Positions 49,701-52,700 of a stretch of 64,000 bases of DNA are shown here, in pieces. Location: assembly GCF_001677475.2 (NCBI RefSeq), contig NZ_CP015229.1. The stretch is one strand, 5' to 3'. Both the position numbers and the translations under genes were made by a program. Below the pieces are notes generated by a model that was given only the letters and a program-made list of their open reading frames with translations, had not been told where the DNA came from and ran no database searches. Each line of letters starts with the position of its first letter. Position 1 is the first letter of the stretch. The DNA is from Escherichia coli (lineage in GTDB: Bacteria > Pseudomonadota > Gammaproteobacteria > Enterobacterales > Enterobacteriaceae).

Positions 49701-52700
49701 GATTAGCAACAGCGGAAAAGGCATGACGGATAGCAACGGGGTTGCAATCGCCTCCCTGACCGGCACGTTAGCGGGCACGCATATGATCACGGCTCGTCTG
49801 GCTAACAGCAATGTCAGCGATACACAGCCAATGACGTTTGTGGCGGATAAAGACAGAGCGGTTGTCGTTCTGCAAACATCGAAAGCGGAAATCATTGGGA
49901 ATGGCGTGGATGAGACAACTCTGACAGCAACAGTGAAAGATCCTTTTGATAACGTGGTTAAAAATCTGTCAGTAGTCTTCCGCACCTCCCCCGCAGACAC
50001 GCAACTGAGTCTGAAGGCGCTTAATACTAATGAGAACGGTATTGCTGAAGTTACCCTTAAGGGCACGGTTTTGGGTGTTCATACAGCCGAAGCCATACTG
50101 CTTAACGGTAAAAGCGATACGAAAATCGTCAATATTGTGCCCGATACCAGCAACGCGCAGGTCACCCTGAACATCCCGGCTCAACAGGTGGTGACGAATA
50201 ACAGCGACAGCGTGCAGCTGACGGCGACGGTGAAAGATCCGTCGAATCATCCGGTGGCGGGAATAACGGTGAACTTCACCATGCCTCAGGACGTGGCGGC
50301 AAACTTTACCCTTGAAAATAACGGTATTGCCATCACTCAGGCCAATGGCGAAGCGCATGTCACCCTCAAAGGTAAAAAAGCGGGCACGCATACGGTTACC
50401 GCAACGTTGGGTAACAATAATGCCAGCGATGCGCAACCAGTCACATTCGTGGCGGATAAGGACAGCGCAGTTGTCGTTCTGCAAACATCGAAAGCGGAAA
50501 TCATTGGGAATGGCGTGGATGAGACGACTCTGACAGCAACAGTGAAAGATCCTTTTGATAACGCAGTAAAAGATCTACCGGTTACCTTCAGTACCAAGCC
50601 GGCAGATACTCAACTTAGTCAGAGCACAAGCAATACTAACGACAGTGGTGTTGCTGAAGTTACCCTTAAGGGCACGGTTTTGGGTGTTCATACAGTCGAA
50701 GCCACACTGCTTAACGGCAATGGCTATACGACGACAGTCAATATTGCGCCCGATGCCAGCAACGCGCAGGTCACCCTGAACATCCCTGCTCAACAGGTGG
50801 TGACGAATAACAGTGACAGCGTGCAGCTGACGGCGACGGTGAAAGATCCGTCGAATCATCCGGTGGCGGGAATAACGGTGAACTTCACCATGCCTCAGGA
50901 CGTGGCGGCAAACTTTACCCTTGAAAATAACGGCATTGCCATCACTCAGGCCAATGGCGAAGCGCATGTCACGCTGAAAGGTAAAAAAGCGGGCACGCAT
51001 ACGGTTACCGCAACGCTGGGTAATAACAATACCAGTGATTCGCAGCCGGTAACATTTGTGGCGGACAAAACCTCGGCTCAGGTTGTCCTGCAGATGTCAA
51101 AAGATGAGATCACAGGTAATGGCGTCGATAACGCAACGCTAACTGCAACGGTTAAAGATCAGTTCGACAATGAGGTGAACAATCTTCCGGTAACATTCAG
51201 CTCAGCCTCTTCAGGACTCACCCTGACCCCGGGAGTAAGTAATACCAATGAGTCTGGCATCGCGCAGGCCACTCTCGCAGGCGTTGCCTTTGGTGAACAG
51301 ACGGTCACTGCATCACTGGCTAATAATGGTGCCAGCGACAACAAAACTGTGCATTTTATTGGCGACACAACGGCGGCAAAAATTATCGAGTTGACGCCTG
51401 TCCCAGACAGCATAATCGCCGGTACCCCGCAGAACAGCTCCGGCAGCGTCATCACCGCCACAGTCGTTGATAATAATGGCTTTCCGGTGAAAGGTGTGAC
51501 TGTGAACTTCACCAGCAACGCAGCGACAGCCGAAATGACGAACGGCGGTCAAGCCGTGACGAACGAACAGGGTAAGGCTACCGTCACTTATACCAATACC
51601 CGCTCCTCGATAGAATCAGGAGCGAGACCGGATACCGTTGAGGCCAGTCTGGAAAATGGTAGCTCCACGCTTAGCACATCAATTAATGTCAACGCTGATG
51701 CGTCTACGGCACATCTCACCTTGCTACAGGCACTTTTTGATACAGTCTCCGCAGGCGACACTACCAATCTGTATATTGAGGTGAAGGATAATTACGGCAA
51801 CGGTGTACCCCAGCAGGAGGTAACCCTCAGAGTATCACCAAGTGAAGGCGTGACCCTCAGTAATAACGGTATAAATACTACCAACCACGACGGCTATTTA
51901 TACGGAAGCATGACCGCTACAAAAGCCGGGGTTTATCAAGTGACGGCAACCCTCGACAATGGCGATTCGATGCAACAAACAGTGACCTATGTGCCGAACG
52001 TCGCGAATGCTGAAATCTCGCTGGCAGCCTCGAAGGATCAGGTGATTGCCGACAATAACGATCTCACGACACTAACAGCAACAGTCGCTGATACAGAGGG
52101 CAATGCGATAGCCAACACTGAGGTAACATTTACTCTGCCGGAAGATGTGAAGACGAACTTCACGCTGAGCGATGGCGGTAAAGCGATTACGGATACTGAC
52201 GGCAAAGCGAAAGTCACGCTGAAAGGTACAAAAGCAGGCGCTCATACTGTTACAGCATCGATGACTGGCGGTAAGAGTGAGCAGTTGGTGGTGAACTTTA
52301 TTGCGGATACGCTCACTGCGCAGGTTAATCTTAACGTTACCGAGGACAACTTTATCGCCAATAACGTTGGGATGACCACACTTCAGGCAACAGTGACTGA
52401 TGGAAACGGCAACCCGTTAGCCAATGAGGCGGTGACATTCACGCTACCGGCAGATGTAAGCGCAAGCTTCACTCTCGGACAAGGCGGTTCCGCCATTACT
52501 GACATCAACGGCAAGGCTGAAGTTACACTGAGCGGTACAAAATCCGGCACTTATCCCGTGACAGTTAGCGTGATCAATTATGGTGTCAGTGATACGAAAC
52601 AGGTGACTTTGATTGCCGATGCTGGTACCGCAAAACTGACCTCCTTAACCTCTGTATACTCATTCGTCGTCAGCACGACCGAGGGCGCAACCATGACGGC

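Follow-up and report, generated by a model that had tools for sequence, protein, structure and literature searches.

The window, the 64-kb stretch of Escherichia coli DNA analysed here, carries on its + strand a single very long ORF (46660-54738 in the window's ORF list). The gene order around it (tRNA-Ser, mtfA, tRNA-Asn, yeeJ and a family 9 glycosyltransferase gene) matches that of annotated E. coli genomes. Pfam matches, identity to K-12, this synteny and a database protein of 2667 aa (P0001; 99% identical, heading a cluster with 22 member sequences) place the yeeJ coding sequence, which encodes an inverse autotransporter adhesin, at 46735-54738 on the + strand, where all features given below also lie unless stated otherwise. 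Just upstream of mtfA and yeeJ, a lambdoid-type prophage (25000-46000; integrase, exonuclease, DUF968 and others) adjoins tRNA-Ser (45265-45354). Only four complete genomes contain this prophage at 99.3-99.5% identity across 97-98% of its length. In strain HCP4S3_I4, an IS1A element lies between tRNA-Asn and yeeJ (L006 1061-1758).

The length of the protein depends on the start that is chosen. The maximal ORF begins at a TTG at 46660 and gives 2692 aa, which is the length reported by the first-pass annotation; as a mechanical ORF this figure stands, but the start annotated in homologues (MATKK, at 46735) gives 2667 aa. Some yeeJ homologues are annotated from MLARSGK instead of MATKK, and the 2017 paper on this protein favours a start 18 residues further in (PMC5595812).

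A Pfam scan of the 2692-aa ORF translation found IAT_beta (PF11924) at aa 169-444 (E 8.9e-113) and 16 Big_1 stretches, and the passenger is a tandem array of Big_1 / Invasin_D3 Ig-like domains. With barrel, passenger and orthologous position all present, the ORF at 46735-54738 is YeeJ, an inverse (type Ve) autotransporter adhesin. Ahead of the barrel, no LysM family reached E 0.001 in the Pfam scan. The first 100 aa share 99% identity with O157 YeeJ, and the LysM assignment in the published YeeJ came from Prosite (PMC5595812). Near the other end, an Invasin_D4 match at YeeJ aa 2499-2572 is borderline (26.7 bits, where the cutoff is 27).

The allele as a whole is a mosaic, with 98% identity to K-12 yeeJ over the first 3.2 kb (46735-49943) and 91.5% over 50827-54729, and its best whole-gene match among complete E. 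coli genomes is at most 96%. The C-terminal tip, a presumed lectin-like binding domain encoded at 54235-54735 (YeeJ aa 2501-2667, the last 167 aa), has only 52-64% identity to its counterpart in O157:H7 YeeJ, unlike the N-terminal 1,700 aa, which are 93-100% identical. There are at least three tip types among database YeeJ proteins. This divergent tip may carry more functional weight than the repeat described below.

A self-offset scan across yeeJ, in which each offset was scored by its best 300-bp window, returned 609 bp as by far the top self-match (95% in that window), followed by 1218 bp (64%). Tandem Repeats Finder reported no repeat; its longest period, 500 bp, is shorter than the 609-bp unit. 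Repeat unit A (49840-50448) consists of the Big_1 domains a1 (49840-50136, 99 aa) and b1 (50137-50448, 104 aa), and repeat unit B (50449-51057) of the corresponding domains a2 (50449-50745) and b2 (50746-51057). Both units are in frame and their edges are domain boundaries, starting at VADKD and ending at PVTF; all four domains score as Big_1 (E 1e-18 to 5e-21), and the repeat region matches the intimin structure 6tpl by sequence (E 6e-8). Offset scan and in-frame boundaries thus bear out the tandem ~609-bp units, each of about two Ig-like domains, that the first-pass annotation had marked within yeeJ at 49840-51057.

The annotation was also right that the two units resemble each other far more than they resemble the other repeats. 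The "a" domains (domains 3 and 5 of the array) are 85% identical in nucleotides and 79% in amino acids and the "b" domains (4 and 6) 95% and 96%, against 48-60% and 22-55% for the remaining Ig domain pairs of yeeJ. Domains "a" and "b" are 38% identical to each other. Domain 7 (51058-51369), an older relative of "a" with 53-55% amino acid identity, marks an earlier round of duplication.

"Near-identical", the term originally applied to the two units, holds for parts of them only. Overall, units A and B agree at 546 of 609 positions (89.7%), and the 63 mismatches are strongly clustered (49951-50046, 50086-50148 and 50407-50448), which leaves a mosaic of stretches at 95-100% identity and a 96-bp patch at about 67%. 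This divergent patch (49951-50046 in A, 50560-50655 in B) contains 32 differences. A homogenised core of domain b (50149-50406 in A, 50758-51015 in B) has only 5 differences in 258 bp, all of them synonymous, and contains the longest exact run between the units, 119 bp at 50206-50324. We considered domain 7 as the source of the divergent patch and rejected it: the two copies of the patch match each other at 67% identity, and each matches domain 7 at 54-56%.

Six mechanical antisense ORFs of 86-176 aa lie over the repeat region (49107-51518, - strand), that is, six of the seven antisense ORFs of at least 80 aa. The clustering of spurious antisense ORFs over the repeats is therefore as the first-pass annotation described it; they are mechanical only and nothing points to genes.

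The age of the two-unit state can be approached from its distribution and from synonymous divergence. The O157:H7 and GF124.3 alleles, which diverge gene-wide by 4-6% from the allele in the window, show almost the same offset-609 identity profile. A 300-bp probe spanning the b|a unit junction matched ~1,213 of the 5,426 complete E. coli genomes with at least 95% identity, and the full eight-domain region is covered in ~1,224, so that the two counts differ by ~11 genomes. Between A and B, dS is ~1.35 in the divergent patch (with dN/dS ~0.2), saturated in the final 42 bp of each unit, 0.085 in the 258-bp core and 0 at 50047-50085; dN/dS overall is 0.25. Between alleles, dS within the repeat and its surroundings is 0.03-0.24, and in the core the paralogous value of 0.085 is no greater than the allelic one (0.07-0.20). 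The profile common to divergent alleles, the junction count and the uneven, locally saturated dS together argue that the duplication is older than the divergence of the long alleles. We therefore read the 609-bp repeat as an old, widespread and ordinary module of the published long form of yeeJ, neither recent nor an artefact.

This reading departs from the earlier proposal of recent unequal recombination, of which the tandem duplication itself is genuine while its recency is contradicted by the 4-6%-divergent alleles, the ~1,213 genomes and the dS of ~1.35. A recent, strain-specific event that duplicated 609 bp in this genome would account for the stretches at 98-100% identity, including the 119 bp of exact match, and the core in the window does have the fewest A/B differences among the sampled alleles (5, against 6-15 in the others). 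However, two units with the same mosaic are common to the divergent alleles and to the many complete genomes just mentioned, and the 63 differences include two segments, the 96-bp patch and the last 42 bp, with dS above 1, which makes a recent duplication very improbable. A variant in which a recent duplication was followed by import of the divergent patches from some unnamed donor is formally possible for the patches. Still less credible, to the point of being negligible, is an assembly artefact in which the repeat was falsely expanded or mis-joined. Ig arrays are a known assembly hazard and one database protein, P0089, has odd, error-like partial internal duplications, but the 63 distinguishing sites, the lack of any exact A/B run longer than 119 bp, the intact reading frame and the 22-member cluster headed by the 99%-identical 2667-aa protein all argue against it, and recurrence of the same two-unit architecture in many closed genomes excludes it. 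The assembly hazard that had been flagged is accordingly a mild one, given 63 sites that tell the units apart and a longest exact repeat of 119 bp.

There remains the question of how an old duplication came to look so uneven. Under plain divergence with no further exchange, the mosaic would reflect uneven selective constraint, and constraint is real here, since dN/dS is low overall (0.25) and the core has no amino acid differences. Constraint alone is nevertheless improbable as an explanation, if somewhat less so than a recent duplication, because synonymous divergence runs from 0 to saturation between adjacent segments, because polymorphisms and haplotypes are common to the two paralogues, with one allele carrying a B patch of A type, and because recombinant alleles with one and with three units are found. 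In a comparison of eight two-unit alleles, A and B have fixed differences at only 8 sites, whereas 27 sites are polymorphic in both units, and haplotypes occur in A and B alike. In strain 2012C-4221 the patch is of A type in both units and A-B identity rises to 95.7%. The uneven synonymous divergence and the haplotypes common to both units indicate that gene conversion is probably still going on, as read from sequence patterns in ~10 alleles. A literature search on unequal recombination in yeeJ returned nothing relevant.

Two yeeJ variants have been described, an MG1655-type and a UMN026-type, the latter longer by a 906-bp fragment that encodes three Big domains and is described as "made up of a repeated section", its sequence being already present in the short allele (Martinez-Gil et al. 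2017, PMC5595812). The K-12-type allele aligns to the window at 46735-49943 and 50827-54729, with 906 bp missing in between; by this alignment and the published description of UMN026, the yeeJ of the window is classed as the long (UMN026-type) variant. The alignment breaks within an 11-bp motif, GTGAAAGATCC, which codes for V-K-D-P of the LTATVKDP motif. Exactly four matches to GTGAAAGATCC occur in the 64-kb window (0.01 would be expected by chance), one per repeated domain: copy 1 at 49933-49943 and copies 2, 3 and 4 at 50230-50240, 50542-50552 and 50839-50849. In K-12, the crossover inside the motif joins copy 1 to copy 4, a 906-bp deletion, and what remains is a single chimeric domain that starts as "a" and ends as "b". 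Since "a" and "b" are only 38% identical and "a" has an older relative in domain 7, we infer that the chimera is the derived state and that the K-12 short allele arose from a long allele through deletion.

Relative to the long variant of Martinez-Gil et al., the allele in the window is the same gene at the same locus with the same extra 906 bp over MG1655, and it differs in its divergent C-terminal tip. Several features seen here are absent from that paper (PMC5595812): the 609-bp two-domain register, the mosaic identity, the 11-bp junction motif and the rarer alleles with one unit, three units or a 297-bp fusion. Its biofilm assays, the sole published functional comparison, found long and short YeeJ functionally alike (PMC5595812).

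The rarer alleles are informative about the kinds of exchange that the repeat permits. The complete genome GN06156 carries just one unit, in a CDS of 7,374 bp. This allele was considered as the ancestral, pre-duplication state and set aside, as an A-type 5' end with a B-type 3' tail fits either history. Three units are found in GCA_012869695.1 (2863/2872 aa), on a 333-kb contig for which the read type is not stated. The middle unit of that allele is a hybrid, with a B-type patch at its 5' side and an A-type tail at its 3' side, which is the expected product of an unequal crossover between two-unit arrays. In GCA_027274645.1 (5.8-Mb contig, 2772 aa), an a/b fusion with an A-type tail precedes two units; the fusion is a 297-bp deletion joining GTGAAAGATCC copies 1 and 2. 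The expectation that the adhesin varies in length among strains is thus confirmed, with this module as the site of the variation, by alleles of one, two and three units and by the 297-bp and 906-bp classes, but the main known polymorphism is the 906-bp one of three domains, not 609 bp (PMC5595812). Change in 609-bp copy number is rare (one single-unit allele in 60 sampled rows, and a gap of ~11 genomes between the junction and full-region counts), and for this reason it is not a fast length switch.

Other changes have also been recorded in the repeat region. In some O157:H7 genomes (NZ_CP076245.1, NZ_CP062755.1) an IS3-family insertion lies inside it. The database protein P0089 (2768 aa) has two partial, out-of-phase internal duplications within its "b" domains, which reflect either a further type of slippage or an error in sequencing or assembly.

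These observations lead to the following model for the Ig-like stalk, to which, with the age of the duplication included, we give a probability of roughly 0.85. An a-b module was duplicated in tandem long ago (a-b, a-b) and has been passed to all long alleles. Copies A and B have probably swapped sequence many times since then, whether through gene conversion within the gene or through unequal homologous recombination, and such exchange would leave some stretches 98-100% identical and others with old, saturated divergence. The same homology could sometimes shift the copy number in register by 609 bp in either direction, yielding one, two or three units. The 11-bp motif would serve as a short-homology junction out of register, at which domains are fused and 297 or 906 bp are lost while the Ig fold is kept; the 906-bp event would have produced the K-12 short allele. 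As to enzymology, RecA-type homologous exchange or slippage is the presumed route. By analogy with the Periscope idea (PMC8201768), the number of Ig domains would set the reach of the C-terminal lectin-like tip from the outer membrane. A bolder version, possible but in our view doubtful, is that the a-b module acts as a length dial with which this Gram-negative type Ve adhesin is slowly adjusted through recombination. Two Ig domains would be gained or lost at a time by in-register exchange, the 11-bp motif would be a recurrent out-of-register junction making chimeric, foldable Ig domains, and selection (for example by O-antigen or capsule thickness) would pick the length.

The repeat is real, correctly located and ordinary, and it is essentially a known property of a known gene. 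Its importance beyond annotation is small: yeeJ is put in the published long class, its product is shortened from 2692 to 2667 aa, and the repeat is cleared of the suspicion of being an assembly error. The mechanistic gain is modest: K-12 and pathogenic-type alleles are known to differ by 906 bp, and this difference can be interpreted as an in-frame deletion joining two copies of the 11-bp motif within a duplicated two-domain module. The rarer length classes, now known, could guide PCR typing of yeeJ and adhesion experiments on stalk length.

YeeJ has the plan of the type Ve adhesins intimin and invasin, with an N-terminal beta-barrel, a Big_1 / Invasin_D3 chain and a presumed C-terminal lectin-like tip. 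Intimin and invasin, however, have few and mutually divergent Ig domains and lack a high-identity tandem module such as that of YeeJ. The second comparison is with the Periscope proteins, surface stalks of variable length such as SasG, Rib and Sgo_0707 (Whelan et al. 2021, PMC8201768). As in these proteins, high DNA identity between tandem repeats of globular domains permits intragenic recombination and a strain-variable stalk length, and a functional domain is placed at the far end of the stalk, presumably an extended rod as in the structures of intimin and invasin. The two 609-bp units, at 89.7% overall and 95% nt / 96% aa in domain b, fall within the Periscope range of repeat identity, with two copies only. 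Repeat number does vary among strains, through the one-, two- and three-unit and fused alleles, which are rare beside the two dominant classes. Classical Periscope proteins have many repeats at 82-100% protein identity that change rapidly between close strains, whereas YeeJ has only 2-3 units at ~90% identity and a copy number that, over thousands of genomes, is confined almost entirely to two states. With so few units, this level of identity and a near-fixed copy number, YeeJ fits the description of a Periscope protein only loosely.
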